Part shown: positions 45,958-56,678 of the stretch, in pieces
How positions within the stretch are numbered: the first letter of the stretch is position 1
How the letters are laid out: each line of letters opens with the position of its first letter
Assembly (NCBI GenBank): GCA_963817955.1
Contig: CAWFQK010000002.1
Location: 160,001-224,000, forward strand
Direction: 5' to 3'
Source: an uncultured Gemmatimonadaceae bacterium
GTDB taxonomy: Bacteria > Gemmatimonadota > Gemmatimonadetes > Gemmatimonadales > Gemmatimonadaceae
Length of the DNA stretch: 64,000 bases
Notes under the pieces: generated by a model
What the model was told of the DNA's origin: nothing
What the model saw: only the letters and a program-made list of their open reading frames with translations
Database searches by the model: none
Translations under genes and position numbers: made by a program

Positions 45958-46938
45958 ATGCCCCGGTCACGAAACGCTGCACCAGCTGAGAAGACCACGG
46001 TGAAGAAGCCGGCATTCAACCCCAAGACGGACAGTGCGACTGATCCGACTTGGGTACCGCCCGTGTGGGATGATGACGTCCTCCTTGGTGCGCACGTGTC
46101 GATCGCTGGAGGCACGCACCAGGCGCCGGCACGTGCGCGGGCGATTGGCGCCAGCGCCATGCAGATCTTCACGAAGATGGCCAACCGCTGGGCCGAGCGG
46201 ATATGCGAGGAGGACGAATGCCGCTCGTACCAGGCGGCGCTGGGCGCGACACGCGTGCGCGCAACGGTGGCCCACGATTCGTACCTGATCAACCTCGCCA
46301 GCCCCGACGAAACACTGCGACGACGGTCGATCGAATCGTTCGTCGCTGAGCTGCAGCGGTGCGAGGCGCTGGGAATCACGTATCTCGTGTCCCACCCTGG
46401 GAACTACATCGACGAGCAAATGTCAGGCATCGCACGCAATGCCGACGCGATCACCGAGGCGCTGGCACGGGTACCGGGGCATACCGTACTCTGCATGGAG
46501 ACCACCTCGGGAAGCGGCACGGCCATCGGGTCGACCTTCGAGGACTTGGCCGCGCTGCTCGGCGGAGTGTCTCAGGAGCATCGGTCGCGTGTCGCCATCT
46601 GCGTCGATACCTGCCATGCCTACTCCGCTGGGTACGATCTCGTGAACGACTACCAGGACGTCTGGGCCCGCTTCGACGGTGTGCTGGGACTGGACCACCT
46701 GAAGGTGCTGCACCTCAATGACTCGAAGACTGCATTCAATTCCAGACGGGACCGCCACGAGTTGATCGGGGAAGGTTCCCTGGGCGAGATCGCTTTCCGG
46801 CAAATTATGAACGACCAGCGGATGAGCCGTGTACCAAAGGTGATCGAGACGCCAAAGGGCACCGACCCCACGGCCACCGATGCCCGGATGCTGGCCAGAC
46901 TGCGCAGCTACCTTGAGAACCGTCCGCCAGCACTTTGA
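45958..46938 (+). CDS. nfo: Endonuclease IV
   Basis: GAHVSIAGG, HDSYLINLAS, HPG, DTCH, HLNDSK, DRHE, ETP. Confidence 0.96.
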   Translation: MPRSRNAAPAEKTTVKKPAFNPKTDSATDPTWVPPVWDDDVLLGAHVSIAGGTHQAPARARAIGASAMQIFTKMANRWAERICEEDECRSYQAALGATRVRATVAHDSYLINLASPDETLRRRSIESFVAELQRCEALGITYLVSHPGNYIDEQMSGIARNADAITEALARVPGHTVLCMETTSGSGTAIGSTFEDLAALLGGVSQEHRSRVAICVDTCHAYSAGYDLVNDYQDVWARFDGVLGLDHLKVLHLNDSKTAFNSRRDRHELIGEGSLGEIAFRQIMNDQRMSRVPKVIETPKGTDPTATDARMLARLRSYLENRPPAL

Positions 46939-46964
46939 CTGGCTCGTCCGTACGATCTACTGGA

Positions 46965-47312
46965 ATGCCATCTCGATCCGTCGCCGCCCACTCGGCCCGA
47001 CACTGGTTGCTCACCGTCATTGCCTTTATCGCGATGGCGGCGCAAGTCGTCGTGGCCATAGCGCCCCTGACGGAAGGGCGCGACGGGCGCTACGCGTCGC
47101 ACATCGAGACTGACGGCACGCATCTCCACTTCGCGCACAACGATGCCACCTGTGCCGCCTGCCAGGCGCGATCGATTCATGGCACGGCCGCACGTGAACC
47201 AGCGCGCCTCGTAGCCTCGGGCGGTCACGCGTTCATAACGCTGTGGATCGCGAATAGTGCAGAGCCGGCGATCCGTTTTTCACAGGACAATCCCCGCGCG
47301 CCGCCGGTGTGA
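46965..47312 (+). CDS. DUF2946/CruR/CutF-like leader protein: TM or signal segment, His-rich stretch, CxxC, C-terminal RAPP
   Basis: WLLTVIAFIAMAAQVVVAIAPL; SHIETDGTHLHFAHNDATCAAC; NPRAPPV-stop. Alternative TTG start at 46935. Confidence 0.8.
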   Translation: MPSRSVAAHSARHWLLTVIAFIAMAAQVVVAIAPLTEGRDGRYASHIETDGTHLHFAHNDATCAACQARSIHGTAAREPARLVASGGHAFITLWIANSAEPAIRFSQDNPRAPPV

Positions 47313-47350
47313 GCTGACCCGTTTGTTGTAGTGGTTTGCGTCAGTTCACA
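47308..47350 (+). promoter_or_regulatory. RNA hairpin overlapping the leader ORF stop codon
   Basis: TGTGAGCTGAC (47308-47318) pairs with GTCAGTTCACA (47340-47350): 11 bp with one G-U. Confidence 0.65.
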
Positions 47351-47363
47351 ATTTAGAGACAAC

Positions 47364-48632
47364 ATGCGCCTTTTTATGGGATTGTGCGCGCTTGCCGTGT
47401 GCGGCAGCGCCGCGTCCGCGCAGCAGCGCGCGGACGATTCATTACGTCTGTCCCGACGCCAAGCCGTCGCCGAAGCACTGGTGCGCAACGCGCAGCTCGA
47501 AGTCGCGCGCGAGCAAACCGCCGAGGCGCGCGCGCGACGCGTGCAGGGCATCGCCATTCCCGATATGACGCTGTCCGCAGCGTTCGATCAGGCTCCGGGA
47601 CCGTTCACGTTCGGGGCGGCGGGCTCTCGCCCCGTAGCCTTGGGATTGGGGATTCCCTTTCCGGACAAGTTCCGGCTGAACAACCGCATCGGTCTGGCTG
47701 GCATTCGGCAGAGCGAATCGAACTACCGACTGCAACAGCAGACCATAGCCAATCAAACATCGGCCACGTATGACTCGCTGCTCGCGGCGTTCAAACACCG
47801 CGAGAGTCTTCTCGAAGCCCAGACGCTGGCCCACGATTTTCTCACGCGGACGCAGGCTCGCTACAACGCCGGGAGCGCGGCGCGACTGGACGTCATTCAG
47901 GCGCAGGTTGGCGTGGCGCAGGCCGCCAATGATCTGATCTCCAACGAGCGCGACCTGGCCAACGCGCAAGCCTCGCTCAACCGAACACTCGGCCGCGTCA
48001 TCGGCGCCCCGATCGCACCCACCGACTCGCTCGGCGTGCCACCACCGCTCCCCGACTCGGCGGGAATCGAGTCCATTGCGCTCGCCAACCGCCCGGAATT
48101 GGCGATGATCGAAAGCCAGCAACAGGGCGCACGCGCCACTACCAGCCTGACGAAAGAGTTCTGGTTGCCCGACCTCAATTTTTCGGTGCAGCGCGACTAT
48201 GCGCAGCCAGGCTCACCGTTGTTCACGACCGGCTTTTCGCTCCCACTTCCTGCGTTCTATTGGCAACACGCCAAGGGCGACATCGCCGTCGCTCAGCACT
48301 TCGAGAAAGAGCTTGCCGCGAGCTACCGCGATACGCGAGCCCAGGTCACGCAGGACGTCCGCTCGGCATACGCCAACGCCAGCACGGCAATGCGGCAGGT
48401 GGTTTTCATCCGCGACGAGCTCGTCCCCGCGGCGCGCGACGCGTACCGCGTCGCCTCCACCAGCTACAGCCTGGGCGGGTCCTCGGCACTCGAAGTCATC
48501 ACTGCACGCACAGCCCTTCTCCAAGCGGAGAGTCAGCTCGCTGACGCCCTCGCTGCCGCCAATACCGCCCGCGCCGATCTGGACCGCGCGCTCGGCGTCA
48601 CCATTCCGCCGCTGGGAGCTTCCAATCGATGA
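47364..48632 (+). CDS. TolC/CzcC-family outer membrane factor
   Basis: Signal peptide ending ASA-Q, RYNAGSAARLDV, NRPEL, PDL, YSLGGSSALEV. Confidence 0.92.
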   Translation: MRLFMGLCALAVCGSAASAQQRADDSLRLSRRQAVAEALVRNAQLEVAREQTAEARARRVQGIAIPDMTLSAAFDQAPGPFTFGAAGSRPVALGLGIPFPDKFRLNNRIGLAGIRQSESNYRLQQQTIANQTSATYDSLLAAFKHRESLLEAQTLAHDFLTRTQARYNAGSAARLDVIQAQVGVAQAANDLISNERDLANAQASLNRTLGRVIGAPIAPTDSLGVPPPLPDSAGIESIALANRPELAMIESQQQGARATTSLTKEFWLPDLNFSVQRDYAQPGSPLFTTGFSLPLPAFYWQHAKGDIAVAQHFEKELAASYRDTRAQVTQDVRSAYANASTAMRQVVFIRDELVPAARDAYRVASTSYSLGGSSALEVITARTALLQAESQLADALAAANTARADLDRALGVTIPPLGASNR

Positions 48633-49786
48633 GATCTTCATTCGCTCGCGCCGTCGCGTTGAGTGCCGCCTACATGGCCGCATTCAGCGTCGGCGGGTGC
48701 ACCAAGGCCGCAAGCAAGCCCGCGGATTCCACCCAGGTATCGACCGGTGAGGCCGCCAATTTCACGGTGACCGCGGAACAGAGAAAGCGCATTCATGTGG
48801 TGACCGCGCAGGTCACGACATTCACTCCGGTCATCGAAGCGACAGGCAACGTCGCGTTCAACGGGGACAAGTCCACACAGGTGCTGTCCCCCGTTTCAGG
48901 TCCCGCCGTTCGAGTCGTTGGCAACGTCGGCATGAACGTGACCCGCGGTGAACCCCTCGCGTACGTGGCGTCGCCCGACTTTGCATCAGCCGTTGCCGCA
49001 TACCGAAAGGCGCAAAGCGCAGATCGTCAATCAAAGCGAGTCGCGGACCGGGACTCGGCGCTCTTCAAGAACGACGCAATTGCGCGCGCCGATCTCGAGC
49101 AAGCGCAGTCAGACGTCGCAGCGGCCGAGGCAGACCTCGAGTCCTCCATCCAGACGATGCGATCGCTGGGCGTAGAGGATGCTCAAATCGCGGCCATACG
49201 GGAGGGCCACTCGGCGTCGATCGAAGCAATCATTCGCTCGCCCATTACCGGAACGATCGTCGAGAAGCTGATTGCCGACGGCCAACTCTTGCAAGCCGGC
49301 ACGACGCAGACGTTCACGATCGCCGACTTGAGCACGGTGTGGGTGAACGCGAACATCTTCGCCAACGACGTCAGGGACGTTGCGGTGGGGCAGCCGGCGA
49401 TGATTCTCGCTGACGTCACTCAAACGCCCATTCCGGGACGCGTCGATTACATCGGTTCGCTCGCCGATCCGGGCACGAAGGCTGTCTCGGTGCGCCTGCT
49501 CGTCCCGAATGACAACCGCGTGCTGCGGAAGGACATGTTCGTCCGCGTCAAGATCACGTCGCGCGCCGAGCATCGCGGCATCCTCGTTCCGGCATCATCC
49601 GTTCTCCGCGACGAAGAAAATCTGCCGTTCGTGTTCCTCGCCGCGGCGGGCAACGGATTCGCACGGCGGCGAGTCACCCTGGGCACACGGGTCGGCGACT
49701 TGTACGAGGTGACCTCCGGTCTCGCAGCCGGTGACCAAGTCGTGGCGGAAGGCGCGCTCTTCCTCCAGTTCGCGGAAAGCCAGTGA
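48629..49786 (+). CDS. CzcB-like RND adaptor lipoprotein
   Basis: VGGC lipobox, SPVSG, IRSPITGTIVE, IADLSTVWV, SGLAAGDQVV. Confidence 0.92.
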   Translation: MRSSFARAVALSAAYMAAFSVGGCTKAASKPADSTQVSTGEAANFTVTAEQRKRIHVVTAQVTTFTPVIEATGNVAFNGDKSTQVLSPVSGPAVRVVGNVGMNVTRGEPLAYVASPDFASAVAAYRKAQSADRQSKRVADRDSALFKNDAIARADLEQAQSDVAAAEADLESSIQTMRSLGVEDAQIAAIREGHSASIEAIIRSPITGTIVEKLIADGQLLQAGTTQTFTIADLSTVWVNANIFANDVRDVAVGQPAMILADVTQTPIPGRVDYIGSLADPGTKAVSVRLLVPNDNRVLRKDMFVRVKITSRAEHRGILVPASSVLRDEENLPFVFLAAAGNGFARRRVTLGTRVGDLYEVTSGLAAGDQVVAEGALFLQFAESQ

Positions 49787-52700
49787 CACACCCCGATCGT
49801 TCCGGCCGCGAGCTACCTCCGGTGGGAAGCGAACAGGGCCGGCATGGCCCTATTCAGCGTCTCGTCGTAGCTGCCGTAGGTCAACCGATTATCAGTGCGT
49901 TCATCATCGTCGCGATCATCGCCGTCGGCATCTTCTCGCTACGTCGGCTGCCGGTCGACGCGTATCCCGATGTCTCGTCGCCGAGCGTGGCCGTCACCAC
50001 CCAATGGTCCGGCCACGCAGCGGAAGAAATCGAGCGCCTGATCTCCGTGCCAATCGAGACGGAACTCAATGGGCTACCCAACTTGGTCGTGATGCGGTCG
50101 ATCTCGTTGTACGGTGTGTCGAGCATCCGCGTCACGTTTACCGACAACACCGACATCTACTTCGCGCGCCAACAAGTGCTCGAGCGGCTGGGCGGAGCGT
50201 CGTTGCCCAGCGGCGTGACGCCCGGATTGGAAGCGCCATTCTCGCCGTCAGGGCTCGTCTATCGCTACGTCCTGCAGAGTCCCGACCGGAGTCCCATGGA
50301 GCTGCACGTGCTCCAGGACTGGGTGCTGAGCAAGGCGTATCGGGCCGTGCCGGGCGTGGCCGATGTGGCGCTCCTGGGCGGTCAAACCATGGAATACCAC
50401 GTCGACGTGGACCCGACGCGGCTGGCGGGCGCCGGGCTATCGATTGACGATGTCGCCACGGCACTCGGCGCGAACAACTCCAACGCCGGCGGCGGATTCT
50501 ACTCCGAGGGCGGCCAATTCTTCTACGTCCGCGGACTTGGACGCGTCGTGACGCTCGAAGACATCGGCAACATCGTCATCGCGGTGAAGAACAGCGTTCC
50601 GGTGCTGATCAAGGACGTCGCGACCGTTGGGATCGGCGCCGCCCCGCGGCTCGGCGAGTTCGGCTTCATGAAGCAAGACGACGCCGTCGAAGGCATCGTG
50701 CTCATGCGACGGGGCGAACAGGCGCAGGTTGTCCTCAAGCGCGTCGAGGCGAAGACGCAGGAGCTCAACGACCATGTCCTTCCGAAGGATGTCAAAGTCC
50801 TTCCGTTCTACGATCGGAGCGATCTCGTCAAGCTGACCACGCGCACGGTGGCGGACAACCTGATTCGCGGCATCGTGCTCGTCGTGATCGTGCTGATCTT
50901 CTTCCTGTACGATCTCCGCTCGGGTCTCATCGTCGCCATCACGATCCCGTTATCCCTGCTGATCGCATTCATGTGCCTGGACCTCCGGCACATCCCCGCC
51001 AACCTGCTGTCCATTGGCGCAATCGACTTTGGAATTCTCGTCGACGGCGCCGTGGTCATGGTGGAAAACGTCTACCGGCAACTCGCGCGACGACACGGCA
51101 CGGTGTACCGGGTTCGCGACGTGGTGCTCGATGCCGCGTCCGAGGTCAATCGGCCAATCGTCTACGCCATCGCCGTGATCGTGGCCGGCTTCCTACCGAT
51201 CTACGCGTTGACCGGGCCCTCAGGCAAGCTGTTCACGCCCATGGCCGACACGACGATCTACGCATTGATCGGCGCGCTGTTCCTCACGCTCACCGTGGTC
51301 CCGGTACTCTGCGTGTGGGTGCTGCGGAAGGGCGTCCAGGAGCGCCGGAATCGGCCGTTCGAGTGGATTCGCGACCAGTACGCCACCGGCCTTGATTGGT
51401 GCCTGCGGCACGTGCGCGCCACGATCGGAGCGTCCGTGGTGATCCTCGCCATTTCCATCGGCATCGCGATGTCACTCGGCGGCGAATTCATGCCGAAGCT
51501 CGACGAGGGGGCGATCTGGGTGCGCGCCACCATGCCCTACACGATCTCCTTCGAGGCATCGGCGCAAATCGTGCCGCAGGTGCGTGCCGTATTGATGAGC
51601 TTCCCCGAGGTCACGACGGTAGCGTCGGAGCACGGGCGTGACGACGCCGGCACGGATCCCATCGGGTTCTACAACGCCGAATTCTACGTCGGACTGAAGC
51701 CATACGGTGATTGGAAGGGCCCGTACCACTCAAAGAACGAGCTGATCGACGCCATGCAGAAAAAGCTGGCGGTCTTTCCAGGCATCACCTTCAACTATAC
51801 GCAGCCGGCAGAAGACGCCGTCGACGAGGCTCTCACGGGTCTCAAGAGTTCGCTGGACGTCAAAGTGTTTGGCACGGATCTGGGCCTCCTGGAGCAGAAG
51901 GGACGTCAGATCAAGGCCATCATCGAGCGCGTGCCCGGGATCACTCACGTGACGCTCGTTCAGGAGTTGGGCCAGCCCAGCCTCACGGTCTCGGTCGATC
52001 GGGCAAAGCTCGCGCGATACGGTCTCAGTTCGGACGCCGTCAACCAGTTGATCTCGGCGGCCGTTGGTGGAACAGCGGCGACCCAGGTGGTTCAAGGGGA
52101 GCGGACGTTCGATCTCGTGGTGCGCCTGCAAGAGCAGTATCGCGCGAATCCAAACGAGATTGGCAACATTCTCATCGCCACGCCCGACGGCAACCAGGTG
52201 CCACTCCGCGAGGTGGCCGACATCCAGGTCGCGAATGGCGCGTCATTTATTTACCGGCAGGACAACTCGCGATACATCGGCGTGCAGTACTCGGTTGAGG
52301 GACGCGACTTGGCCAGCGCGGTCGACGAAGCGCAAGCCGCGGTCGCCAAGCAAGTCAAGATGCCCACCGGCTACTCGACCCGATGGGGCGGCGAATTCGA
52401 ACAGTACAACGCGTCACACGCGCAGATCGACGTCGTGGTTCCACTCACGGTCATCCTCGTGTTCGGCATCCTGTTCCTCTTGTACAAGAATTTCAAGTTT
52501 CCGCTCATCACCGTGCTTGGGGTCATCCTCTCCGGTCCGATTGGCGGATTGCTGGCCCTCCGCCTCACTGGAACCCCGTTGTCGGTGTCGTCGATGATCG
52601 GATTCCTGGCGCTGTTCGGCGTGTCCGTGCAGACGGCCGTGGTCTACATCTCCTACGCCAACGAGCTGCGCCTGGGAGGACAGAGTATCGTCGACGCGAC

Positions 52701-52926
52701 GCGCGCTGCGGCGTTACTCCGACTCCGGCCGATCATGATGACCGCGCTCGTCGCCGCGCTCGGGTTGTTGCCGGCTGCGTTGGCGACCGGCGTCGGCTCG
52801 AGCACACAGAAGCCGTTCGCGCTGGTCATCGTGGGCGGATTGTTCTCACGGCTCTTGATCAGCGTGTTCCTCATGCCCGTCCTGTACACGATGGCGGCAC
52901 GCGAAGGAGATCATCTGGAGGTGTGA
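49783..52926 (+). CDS. CzcA/CusA-family heavy-metal RND permease (divalent HME type)
   Basis: LPVDAYPDV, ANLLSIGAIDFGILVDGAVVMVEN (DFG type), GKLFTPMA, EFMPKLDEG, RLRPIMMTALVA. Confidence 0.94.
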   Translation: MTHPDRSGRELPPVGSEQGRHGPIQRLVVAAVGQPIISAFIIVAIIAVGIFSLRRLPVDAYPDVSSPSVAVTTQWSGHAAEEIERLISVPIETELNGLPNLVVMRSISLYGVSSIRVTFTDNTDIYFARQQVLERLGGASLPSGVTPGLEAPFSPSGLVYRYVLQSPDRSPMELHVLQDWVLSKAYRAVPGVADVALLGGQTMEYHVDVDPTRLAGAGLSIDDVATALGANNSNAGGGFYSEGGQFFYVRGLGRVVTLEDIGNIVIAVKNSVPVLIKDVATVGIGAAPRLGEFGFMKQDDAVEGIVLMRRGEQAQVVLKRVEAKTQELNDHVLPKDVKVLPFYDRSDLVKLTTRTVADNLIRGIVLVVIVLIFFLYDLRSGLIVAITIPLSLLIAFMCLDLRHIPANLLSIGAIDFGILVDGAVVMVENVYRQLARRHGTVYRVRDVVLDAASEVNRPIVYAIAVIVAGFLPIYALTGPSGKLFTPMADTTIYALIGALFLTLTVVPVLCVWVLRKGVQERRNRPFEWIRDQYATGLDWCLRHVRATIGASVVILAISIGIAMSLGGEFMPKLDEGAIWVRATMPYTISFEASAQIVPQVRAVLMSFPEVTTVASEHGRDDAGTDPIGFYNAEFYVGLKPYGDWKGPYHSKNELIDAMQKKLAVFPGITFNYTQPAEDAVDEALTGLKSSLDVKVFGTDLGLLEQKGRQIKAIIERVPGITHVTLVQELGQPSLTVSVDRAKLARYGLSSDAVNQLISAAVGGTAATQVVQGERTFDLVVRLQEQYRANPNEIGNILIATPDGNQVPLREVADIQVANGASFIYRQDNSRYIGVQYSVEGRDLASAVDEAQAAVAKQVKMPTGYSTRWGGEFEQYNASHAQIDVVVPLTVILVFGILFLLYKNFKFPLITVLGVILSGPIGGLLALRLTGTPLSVSSMIGFLALFGVSVQTAVVYISYANELRLGGQSIVDATRAAALLRLRPIMMTALVAALGLLPAALATGVGSSTQKPFALVIVGGLFSRLLISVFLMPVLYTMAAREGDHLEV

Positions 52927-52966: not shown

Positions 52967-54007
52967 GTGAAGCGGACACCTGGCGTGATCAACAACGAAA
53001 AGACCGATGATCGAAGGCGGATCGTCGGTCTTTTTGCGTTACTCGTGGTGGCGAATATCGGCGCGTGGGCATGGGCGCTGATCGCCTTTCGCCGCTATCC
53101 ACTGCTGTTGGGCACCGCACTCCTCGCCTATGGTCTGGGGCTGCGCCACGCGATCGACGCCGATCACATTGCCGCGATCGACAACGTCACTCGAAAGCTG
53201 ATGCAGGAGGGCCAACGTCCGATTGCCACCGGCTTCTTCTTCTCGCTCGGGCATTCGACCGTCGTGGTCCTGGCGTCGGTGGCCATCGCCGCCACAGCCA
53301 TGGCGCTCGGTACCCAGCTCGCCGCATGGCACGACGTGGGCGGCATCATCGGGACCAGTGTGTCCGCGCTCTTCCTGCTCGGCATTGCCGTGATGAACCT
53401 GTTCATCCTCGCGTCGGTGTACCGCGCATTCGACCGCGTGAAGGACGGTGGCGAGCTCGGCGACGGTGACCTGGATCTGCTCCTGAGTGGCGGCGGCTTG
53501 CTGGCGCGCATCTTCCGGCCGCTCTTCGGGATGATTCGTCGAAGCTGGCACATGTATCCGCTCGGTCTGCTGTTCGGATTGGGGTTCGACACCGCCACCG
53601 AAATCGGGGTCCTCGGCATCTCGGCGGCAGAGGCGGCAAAGGGCATGTCGATCTGGTCGATCATGGTGTTCCCTGCCCTCTTCACCGTTGGCATGTCGCT
53701 CGTGGACACGGCCGATAGCGTGCTGATGCTCGGCGCGTACGGGTGGGCCTATCGCAAGCCGATTAGAAAACTCTACTACAACTTCACCATCACGTTCATT
53801 TCGGTAGTCGTGGCACTGCTCGTCGGCGGAGTCGAGGCGCTGGGGCTGCTCGGACGCCGATTCGGATTCCAGGGGCCGTTCTGGAGCACCATTGCTGCGC
53901 TGAACGGTAACTTTGGAATCATCGGGTACCTGATCATCGGCATCTTCATCATGAGCTGGGCAGTATCGGCCCTCGTCTATCGCATGAAGACGTGGGATAA
54001 GGCTTAG
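52967..54007 (+). CDS. NiCoT high-affinity Ni/Co permease (HoxN/HupN/NixA family)
   Basis: GLRHAIDADHIAAIDN, FSLGHSTVV, MYPLGLLFGLGFDTATE, LFTVGMSLVDT. Confidence 0.95.
   Translation: MKRTPGVINNEKTDDRRRIVGLFALLVVANIGAWAWALIAFRRYPLLLGTALLAYGLGLRHAIDADHIAAIDNVTRKLMQEGQRPIATGFFFSLGHSTVVVLASVAIAATAMALGTQLAAWHDVGGIIGTSVSALFLLGIAVMNLFILASVYRAFDRVKDGGELGDGDLDLLLSGGGLLARIFRPLFGMIRRSWHMYPLGLLFGLGFDTATEIGVLGISAAEAAKGMSIWSIMVFPALFTVGMSLVDTADSVLMLGAYGWAYRKPIRKLYYNFTITFISVVVALLVGGVEALGLLGRRFGFQGPFWSTIAALNGNFGIIGYLIIGIFIMSWAVSALVYRMKTWDKA

Positions 54008-54360: not shown

Positions 54361-56674
<2,314 letters not shown>

Positions 56675-56678
<4 letters not shown>

Follow-up and report, generated by a model that had tools for sequence, protein, structure and literature searches.

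A conserved leader gene ending in RAPP, putatively encoding an arrest peptide of the DUF2946 class, heads a metal efflux pump operon in Gemmatimonadaceae

The DNA analyzed here is a stretch of 64,000 nucleotides from the genome of an uncultured soil Gemmatimonadaceae bacterium (assembly GCA_963817955.1, contig CAWFQK010000002.1, positions 160,001 to 224,000), hereafter the window, in which all positions are counted from its first letter. At the head of an operon for a ZneA/CzcA-type metal efflux pump of the resistance-nodulation-division (RND) type lies a small leader open reading frame (ORF) of 115 codons. Judged by its sequence, this ORF is a real, conserved coding gene and a divergent, unannotated member of the known DUF2946 (CruR/CutF) leader class, not a new kind of regulator. 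The reading that we prefer, with a rough probability of 0.6, is that it encodes a cis-acting, metal-sensing arrest peptide, and that ribosome arrest close to its C-terminus would remodel the RNA in a CutF-like manner and so raise the expression of the pump. A similar reading had been proposed in an earlier note made from the letters alone, in which the leader gates the pump genes through a hairpin at its own stop codon. All the coordinates in that note, those of the ORF, the CAAC and RAPP motifs, the hairpin and the TolC ATG, were found to be correct, and the hairpin gate turned out to be the weakest part of the reading.

The positions of the features are collected in Table 1. The ORF list had placed the start of the leader at an upstream TTG (46935, 125 amino acids); the ATG at 46965 was preferred because the N-termini of the orthologues agree with it. 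The predicted signal anchor (residues 15-33) has a mean Kyte-Doolittle hydropathy of 2.59 and is preceded by two Arg and no acidic residues. It is followed by a putative metal-binding stretch that ends in C63-A-A-C66 (encoded at 47151-47162) and, after a spacer, by the RAPP motif, a single Val and the TGA stop codon. An AlphaFold2 model of the leader, built with the family alignment (mean predicted local distance difference test score, pLDDT, of 75), contained a helix at residues 5-37, with pLDDT values of 93-97 across residues 11-30, a short helix at residues 64-72, and otherwise coil. Such an arrangement of a single transmembrane (TM) helix and mostly coil resembles the published description of CruR. 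When all stop-to-stop frames of at least 60 amino acids in the whole genome were searched for the composite pattern CxxC-(43-45 aa)-R[AG]PP-(0-9 aa)-end, it was found in 3 of 43,595, namely in the leader ORF, in a DUF2946 paralogue and in one spurious-looking frame. Scans of Pfam and NCBIfam with the leader sequence alone gave no matches above threshold, and the best match of a profile search against solved structures was at chance level (E = 0.39). No RNA run is listed among the public sequencing runs that contain the window DNA, the sole such run being soil-metagenome DNA (word share 0.21).

Among 61 related genomes, that of the window included, 30 gave a match to the leader. By group, it was found in 27 of 30 genomes of the same genus, in 2 of 6 genomes from other genera of the family, and in none of 24 genomes from two other families. 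The 29 orthologues share 33-53% identity with the window protein, and residues A20, A31, P34, L35, E37, H46, E48, H58, C63, C66, R69, S70 and R111-P114 are invariant in all of them; both of the motifs on which the earlier note had built its reading, RAPP and CxxC, are thus retained in 29/29. The spacer from C66 to R111 comprises 44 residues in all 28 same-genus orthologues and 43 residues in an orthologue from another genus (L031). RAPP is followed by one residue in 5 loci and by three residues in 24, and the stop codon is TGA at all 29 loci.

The distribution of the family was further analyzed by running its profile against 1.84 billion metagenome representatives, with the matches clustered at 50% identity. 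This yielded 407 clusters at E <= 0.001, 205 of them at E <= 1e-10. Among the best 150 of the 407 clusters, CxxC was present in 149 and RAPP in 134, and a three-residue tail after RAPP was seen in 88; the 16 clusters without RAPP were truncated, fused or frame-shifted pieces, variants with RGPP, RPPP, RSPP or RDPP, and one sequence ending in RAPA. In the 134 RAPP-bearing clusters the spacer was 44 residues long in 119, 43 in 11 and 45 in 4. In a set of 102 diverse full-length members, which had been picked on R[AG]PP and C..C and not on His, the residues H46, H58, C63, C66 and RAPP were invariant and E48 was at least 90% conserved. A profile built from these 102 sequences matched 133 of 401 sampled genomes of the phylum (131 of 399 without the unpublished genomes G200 and G224, both of which match), including 60 of 93 genomes in the family of the window and 63 of 166 in a second family. 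None of the best 120 database homologues carries a precomputed Pfam domain, and the named ones among these 120 are all Gemmatimonadaceae or Gemmatimonadales proteins annotated as 'hypothetical protein'. A search of genome contigs with the pattern TC[AV][AS]CQARS returned 23 loci, all of them in Gemmatimonadaceae of the same genus; owing to the narrowness of the pattern, this search is uninformative on the wider distribution.

The earlier note had suggested a hidden Markov model (HMM) comparison with DUF2946. The leader scored 10.2 bits (E = 1.4) against the Pfam profile PF11162 (DUF2946), below the gathering cut-off of 23.7 bits, a result that taken alone counts against its membership. Sub-threshold matches to PF11162, aligned through the end of the profile, were obtained with 27 of the 29 orthologues (best E = 0.0042), and DUF6153 was also touched by 19 of the 29. 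The homology is supported through a paralogue in the same genome (L002:1456-1842; G000:C4, around 698.4 kb) that exceeds the PF11162 cut-off with 24.2 bits. The leader family profile aligned with this paralogue over 112 columns with the spacer ungapped (hhalign, probability 96.3%, E = 1.5e-9), and HMMER matched the two at E = 2.2e-9. The relationship to DUF2946 suggested in the earlier note therefore stands by way of the paralogue, and the leader itself falls short of the Pfam cut-off. The paralogue contains HVE...H...DCALC, a 44-residue spacer and RAPP followed by seven residues, and it directly precedes a gene for a TonB-dependent receptor. A third relative in the same genome, on the minus strand and outside the window (L034:1486-1935; G000:C2, around 96.4 kb), gave a sub-threshold PF11162 score of 21.3 bits; it has a CCCPCC motif and the C-terminus GPPPLHV, and also lies directly before a TonB-dependent receptor gene. 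From these sequences, one leader design appears to be used by the cell before both an exporter and importers.

As defined by Roy et al. 2022 (PMC9426467), DUF2946 proteins have CXXC and, separated from it by a constant distance of about 45 amino acids, RAPP; this RAPP lies three residues from the C-terminus, more than 95% of the proteins have an export signal, and their genes come first in operons. The leader shares these descriptive features, namely CXXC, the C-terminal RAPP, the conserved spacing, an export or TM segment and the first position in the operon. The idea that RAPP is an extra element added to a DUF2946-type leader had to be given up, since the combination of CXXC and RAPP already defines DUF2946 (PMC9426467).

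In all 29 orthologous loci the leader lies directly before the TolC gene and on its strand, with a gap of 51 nt in the window and of 39-61 nt within the genus. The complete unit of leader, TolC, adaptor and RND genes was found in 13 of 14 longer loci; the fourteenth (L046) is a weak match that runs to the contig end, and none of the genes of the unit were seen there. The RND pump of the window scored 778.1 bits against ZneA (4k0e) and 515.1 bits against CusA, in agreement with the divalent-type (CzcCBA-like) pump recognized earlier. The motif DFGX3DGAX3VEN of heavy-metal efflux (HME) RND pumps, located in TM4, is present in the translation as AIDFGILVDGAVVMVEN. We take this motif, DFGILVDGAVVMVEN in this pump, to be a signature of divalent-cation HME pumps, to which it was reportedly assigned by Nies in 2003. 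As the pump is ZneA-like, a divalent metal, for instance Zn, Co, Ni or Cd, would be the most likely one for the leader to sense. According to the usual view, two-component systems or metalloregulators switch on metal efflux pumps; neither adjoins this operon, and inspection of the neighbours of the leader confirmed that no regulator gene is adjacent.

The mechanism that we propose begins with co-translational insertion of the signal anchor, which would place the following segment outside the cytoplasm. The ribosome would then stall at R111-A112-P113-P114 with Pro113 in the P site (47301-47303) and Pro114 in the A site (47304-47306), a register borrowed from the toeprints of CruR and ApdA (PMC12992588). 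In this state the 44-residue spacer would keep the His/Glu/His/Cys/Cys site and the peptidyl-transferase centre a constant distance apart, and metal bound to the nascent chain would alter the duration of the arrest. The footprint of a ribosome on mRNA extends beyond its P-site codon, and a ribosome in this register would hold the mRNA to about 47315-47317, which is nearly the whole 5' arm of the window stem-loop. The arrested ribosome would thus cover the RAPP codons, the last codons and the stop codon, that is, the 5' strand of a stem-loop that ends just before the Shine-Dalgarno (SD) sequence and AUG of TolC or, in most orthologues, on them; in the orthologues it would cover the whole 5' strand of a three-tier stem. 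The RNA would therefore be remodelled, and the expression of tolC and of the adaptor and RND genes would increase. With the CutF-like logic expected for an efflux pump, metal would prolong the stall and the pump would be induced. We infer the arrest itself, the topology, the involvement of a metal and its identity, the direction of regulation and an output at translation initiation.

Upstream of the leader, the -10-like hexamer TACGAT is preceded by CAGCAC (46928-46933) at a distance of 17 nt, at a place where the orthologues have TAGCGT. The window's upstream hexamer is degenerate and overlaps the end of nfo. A TAnnnT hexamer ending 6-12 nt before the start codon was found at 27 of the 29 orthologous loci, and (C/G)TAGC(G/A) located 35-40 nt upstream at 19 of the 29. 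In most orthologues the two combine as TAGCGT-N17-TAnnnT, ending 6-9 nt 5' of the leader ATG, and there is no SD before this ATG. A scan of 46700-47500 for the strict sigma-70 consensus gave no sites. Based on the promoter-like geometry and the lack of an SD, the leader would have its own promoter and probably a leaderless or near-leaderless mRNA.

The hairpin of the window pairs 47308-47318 with 47340-47350 through 10 Watson-Crick pairs and one G.U pair, and is part of the minimum free energy (MFE) structure; 13 nt separate its 3' arm from the TolC ATG. In the same MFE structure, G47366-C47369 pairs with 47296-47299 in the Arg and Ala codons (4 bp). In order to compare it with the orthologues, we folded the region that begins at the Arg codon and includes nine bases after the TolC ATG for 20 of the 29 loci, near-duplicates and L031 having been left out. 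The same nested structure was obtained in all 19 folds other than that of the window. It consists of the Arg and Ala codons (GCGCG) paired with AUGCGC of TolC, of the Pro-Pro codons (mostly CCU CCC) paired with the SD (GGGA or GGAG), and of the last codons and the stop codon paired with CUCAG..UCACC. The window hairpin corresponds to the inner tier of this structure, with the middle tier absent and the outer tier reduced to four pairs. The folds had z <= -2 in 14 of 20 cases, the exceptions being the window, L006, L009, L020, L023 and L026. The window species is an outlier within its genus, with CCG CCG as Pro codons, AGAGA as SD, a one-residue tail and a longer inner stem; the predicted pairing of the SD is lost in it and kept in 19/19 folded relatives.

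Conservation of the stem was then assessed on alignments. The consensus that RNAalifold derived from a MAFFT alignment was poor (-7.0 kcal/mol, 12 pairs), and for this reason a covariance model was built. In the covariance-model alignments of 28 sequences, and of 31 after three from other genera were included, 92.9% and 91.7% of the cells were paired, compared with 19-51% when the partners were slid. Most of the paired columns never vary, so that the support for the stem consists of conserved pairing potential and not of covariation. In one clade (L011-L016 and L018), inspection by eye indicated a change from GGUG/CACC to AUUG/CAAU in a shifted register; it was counted as unpaired because the model alignment missed the GAUUG/CAAUC register, and it would represent one evolutionary event at best. 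The codon CCT is used for the first Pro of RAPP in 18 of 28 same-genus loci, compared with 9% of the Pro codons in eight window genes, an excess that is suggestive, although the loci are related.

Several results weigh against the preferred reading, most of them against its hairpin. In the window, the 101-nt fold had z = +1.14, with 177 of 200 shuffles at least as stable, and the 81-nt fold had z = -0.16, with 82 of 200; the SD AGAGA takes part in no pairing, the two Pro are encoded by CCG CCG, and the start region is already 0.80 unpaired without a ribosome. Changes on both sides of a pair were found in only 2 of the 19 pairs with 28 sequences and in 3 of 19 with 31, and this weak covariation was reached by 96 and 46 of 500 shuffles, respectively. 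Of 19 MFE folds from other genera, 10 have the RAPP codons paired with the start region; in the other-genus loci with intergenic regions of 170-200 nt, these codons have partners elsewhere. In a recoding test, in which the duplex energy with the locus's own start region was calculated for all 384 RAPP codon combinations weighted by codon usage, the native codons ranked at P <= 0.05 in only 9 of the 28 loci of the same genus and in 2 of 20 other loci (P = 0.39 for the window); the codons commonly used for R-A-P-P can by their nature pair with a G-rich SD and with AUGCGC. When the context was widened by 30 nt upstream and 33 nt of TolC coding sequence, the pairing of the Pro-Pro codons with the SD appeared in the MFE structure of 22 of 28 loci, and that of the Arg-Ala codons with the AUG in 13 of 28. 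When the footprint of a stalled ribosome was masked, positions -12 to +3 had a mean unpaired probability of 0.54 instead of 0.51 in the wide context and of 0.57 instead of 0.52 in the short one, with a gain of at least 0.2 in 4 of 28 loci. Finally, CruR and CutF respond to metal in opposite ways, and precedent therefore leaves the direction of regulation unfixed.

With regard to the gate proposed in the earlier note, then, the stem is present and its pairing potential is conserved, yet the window stem is not above shuffles and leaves the SD untouched. The covariation that the note had suggested as a check is weak, with more than nine tenths of the cells paired and a number of both-sided changes that shuffles also reach. 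Modelling gave no clear opening of the start region by a stalled ribosome, the gain being 0.03-0.05.

The main rival reading is a CruR-type mechanism, in which the arrest peptide would act on transcription and not on translation initiation. According to it, a ribosome parked on RAPP would shield the nascent RNA or a paused RNA polymerase from Rho, its release would lead to termination before tolC, and the hairpin would act as a pause or timing element. Such a mechanism was shown for the closest sequence relative, which has the same CxxC-spacer-RAPP-3 aa layout (PMC9426467), and it would agree with accessibility modelling that yielded no clear switch at the ribosome-binding site (RBS) and with a window SD that is not sequestered. 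We nevertheless regard it as unlikely, because the intergenic region is short compared with the 162 nt of cruR, because the 40-nt windows after the stop codons are not C-rich (C 15-23%, G 17-38%), and because the logic is the opposite of that of an exporter: metal relieves the CruR stall and thereby silences the operon, a response that would be useful for an importer but not for an efflux pump. The CutF-like reading, with a longer arrest in the presence of metal, a remodelled RNA and production of TolC and the pump, remains the most likely one in our analysis.

It is quite improbable that the product functions as a mature, membrane-anchored periplasmic metal-binding protein, either a CzcI-like accessory protein, a chaperone or a trans-acting regulator, with RAPP as a structural or interaction motif. 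The conserved His and Cys residues would fit a mature metal site equally well, and CzcI of C. metallidurans, a CutF-like protein without a Pro motif, is encoded before czcCBA (PMC9973294). On the other hand, RAPP lies 1-3 residues before the stop codon in 29/29 orthologues, and RAPP-like motifs are reportedly excluded from proteomes except near the C-termini of the products of small exported upstream ORFs (PMC12992588). Moreover, the motifs and the length of the spacer are conserved while the sequence of the spacer is not, and the AlphaFold2 model contains no folded periplasmic domain. A spacer of fixed length and free sequence between invariant motifs, together with the missing folded domain, is more in keeping with a ruler on the nascent chain than with a binding protein in its mature form, as far as sequence and model allow. 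The least probable alternative, a stem-loop that works independently of the leader peptide, for example in RNA stability or processing or as a weak terminator, and that overlaps the stop codon by coincidence, would accommodate the conserved pairing potential without covariation tying the stem to a switch and a window stem that leaves the SD free, but a scan of 46700-47500 for intrinsic terminators gave no sites, there is no T-run at the stem-loop, and its 5' strand always lies within reach of a ribosome at RAPP, the tail being one or three residues long.

Table 1. Leader gene, RNA elements and pump operon in the window (aa, amino acids; nt, nucleotides).
Feature	Position	Strand	Basis or remark
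Promoter-like element	46928..46956	+	-10-like hexamer TACGAT 46951-46956, 8 nt before ATG
Leader ORF, DUF2946-like (CruR/CutF-like), putative arrest peptide	46965..47312	+	115 aa; ATG 46965, stop TGA 47310-47312
N-terminal signal-anchor/TM segment, residues 15-33, predicted N-in/C-out	47007..47063	+	Hydropathy, AlphaFold2 helix
Putative metal-binding stretch H46-x-E48 ... H55 ... H58-x4-C63-x2-C66	47100..47162	+	Residue conservation
Spacer from CxxC to RAPP, 44 aa, fixed length, variable sequence	47163..47294	+	Orthologue alignment
RAPP motif, R111-A112-P113-P114	47295..47306	+	29/29 orthologues; arrest putative
Stem-loop with leader stop codon (47310-47312) in 5' arm	47308..47350	+	MFE fold, pair counts
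TolC start region, SD-like AGAGA 47355-47359 and ATG 47364	47355..47366	+	AGGGA or GGAGA in orthologues
Outer-membrane factor, TolC/CzcC-like, OEP	47364..48632	+	PF02321, E = 3e-47
Periplasmic adaptor, CzcB/NccB-like	48629..49786	+	HlyD_D23, E = 1.3e-43; TIGR01730 above cut-off; TIGR00999 156.9 bits, below cut-off
Heavy-metal RND pump, ZneA/CzcA type, contains DFGILVDGAVVMVEN	49783..52926	+	TIGR00914, 892.9 bits, above cut-off
HoxN/NixA-type Ni/Co permease, optional passenger	52967..54007	+	TIGR00802, 412.5 bits

Upstream of the leader are genes for FtsX, an M23 peptidase and endonuclease IV (nfo), and 3' of the permease gene are an ORF of 100 amino acids without family assignment and a malic-enzyme gene. 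The HoxN/NixA-type permease, usually an importer, sits 40 nt 3' of the exporter gene in the window. Of the 13 other loci, only 2 have a Ni/Co permease gene after that of the RND pump (3 of 14 with the window), and we therefore consider it a passenger outside the conserved unit; in loci without it, the malic-enzyme gene comes directly after the pump. The gene for the malic-enzyme/PTA-domain protein (771 amino acids in a relative) is split in the window (54361-56678) into at least three frames: frame 1 holds residues 1-363, frame 2 residues 498-529 and frame 3 residues 411-769. Other assemblies, too, contain several orthologous RND or adaptor genes that are split, and all these split frames are either assembly indels or pseudogenes.

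Outside the genus, the gene that follows the leader was identified at 26 loci (L075-L101 without L092) as a TolC orthologue in 19 cases and as a different ORF in 6, with one case left unassigned. The six different ORFs (L075, L090, L095, L096, L097 and L099) carry a signal peptide, are about 390-470 amino acids long and are mutually related; FGRQNPQHPHSWAF was found in 4 of the 6, and none of them gave a Pfam or NCBIfam match. They may encode an uncharacterised outer-membrane protein under the same control.

The leader class and its link to efflux pumps are already in print. The genes OEP (CusC/CzcC/SilC), ACR_tran and HlyD_D23 are the commonest downstream neighbours of CutF-like proteins, some clusters of which may bind other metals (Ozturk et al. 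2023, PMC9973294). In the supplement of Fujiwara et al. 2025 (PMC12992588), the counts for RAPP versus AAPP are 620 versus 148 upstream of RND adaptor genes, 530 versus 380 upstream of TolC-family genes and 50 versus 7 upstream of CusA/CzcA genes. The suggestion in the earlier note that a pump operon would be a new type of target is thus superseded by the OEP and RND neighbours published in these two sources. Efflux, TolC and RND are unmentioned in the main text of PMC12992588, and the string 'Gemmatimon' is absent from the main texts of PMC9426467, PMC12992588 and PMC9973294 and from the supplement files covered by the search (File S1 of PMC9973294 lay outside it). In the literature on DUF2946, RAPP arrest peptides and efflux, we came across no pump-linked member that had been studied at the bench.

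The leader is therefore, as its sequence and conservation indicate, a real and well conserved gene that is ordinary in concept, with a putative function. What is particular here is a large unannotated branch in Gemmatimonadota below the Pfam threshold, with two invariant His beside CxxC, a ZneA-type pump and RAPP codons able to act as an anti-start strand. A broader claim, that this is the first arrest-peptide sensor of a divalent metal (Zn, Co, Ni or Cd), with a nascent His2Cys2(Glu) site 44 residues from RAPP, RAPP codons that double as the anti-SD/anti-start strand, a leaderless mRNA, and a paralogue with the same ruler and opposite logic before a TonB-dependent importer of the same cell, would be doubtful at present. 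A CruR/CutF-type leader was in this case entirely missed by Pfam and by genome annotation. The 44-residue ruler and the invariant His, Cys and RAPP residues amount to ready-made mutants for analyzing the way in which metal bound by a nascent chain is signalled to the ribosome, and the family could serve to test whether nascent-chain sensing extends from copper to divalent metals.

Among the known systems, ApdA, ApdP and ApcA resemble the leader in having a C-terminal RAPP after an N-terminal localisation signal and in being encoded upstream of the regulated gene; they differ in that they monitor Sec/YidC activity and have no metal-binding motif (PMC7897499; PMC10951233). The Pfam and NCBIfam scans of the leader and its orthologues gave no match that would relate them to these proteins. 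CzcI of Cupriavidus metallidurans, compared with the leader by description only, is likewise a small Cys/His ORF of the CutF-like class before a divalent RND operon of the czcCBA type, but it reportedly has no C-terminal proline motif (PMC9973294).

The closest relative is CruR (Bp2923) of Bordetella pertussis, in which copper control, exerted through Rho, requires both RAPP and CXXC (PMC9426467), and which arrests in the PURE system while its two Pro codons occupy the P and A sites, in this order (PMC12992588). The two share a small ORF at the head of the operon, an N-terminal export signal, CXXC, a fixed spacer (45 amino acids in CruR and 44 in the leader) and RAPP located 1-3 residues before the stop codon; both are predicted to be poorly structured, and they are linked by sequence homology through the DUF2946 paralogue in the same genome. 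Unlike the leader, CruR is above the Pfam threshold, and its target is a TonB-dependent importer reached over a 162-nt spacer, with Rho as effector and copper relieving the stall, whereas the leader precedes an efflux pump at 51 nt. The stem-loop across the stop codon and the two invariant His beside CxxC also set the leader apart from CruR.

In CutF of Rhodobacter capsulatus, the stall allows the ribosome to melt a stem-loop that shields the next RBS, and copper prolongs the stall (PMC9973294; bioRxiv 10.1101/2025.02.05.636593). CutF differs from the leader by its CxxxC motif, by an EF-P-sensitive PPP in place of RAPP and by acting on a multicopper oxidase. An anti-SD has been demonstrated in the CutF stem-loop, whereas for the leader shielding of the SD is absent in the window and only predicted in the orthologues. 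Both would nevertheless be exported nascent metal sensors with a Pro-rich stall sequence at the C-terminus and a stem-loop before the next gene, and induction by metal, as in CutF, is the logic expected for a detoxification gene.

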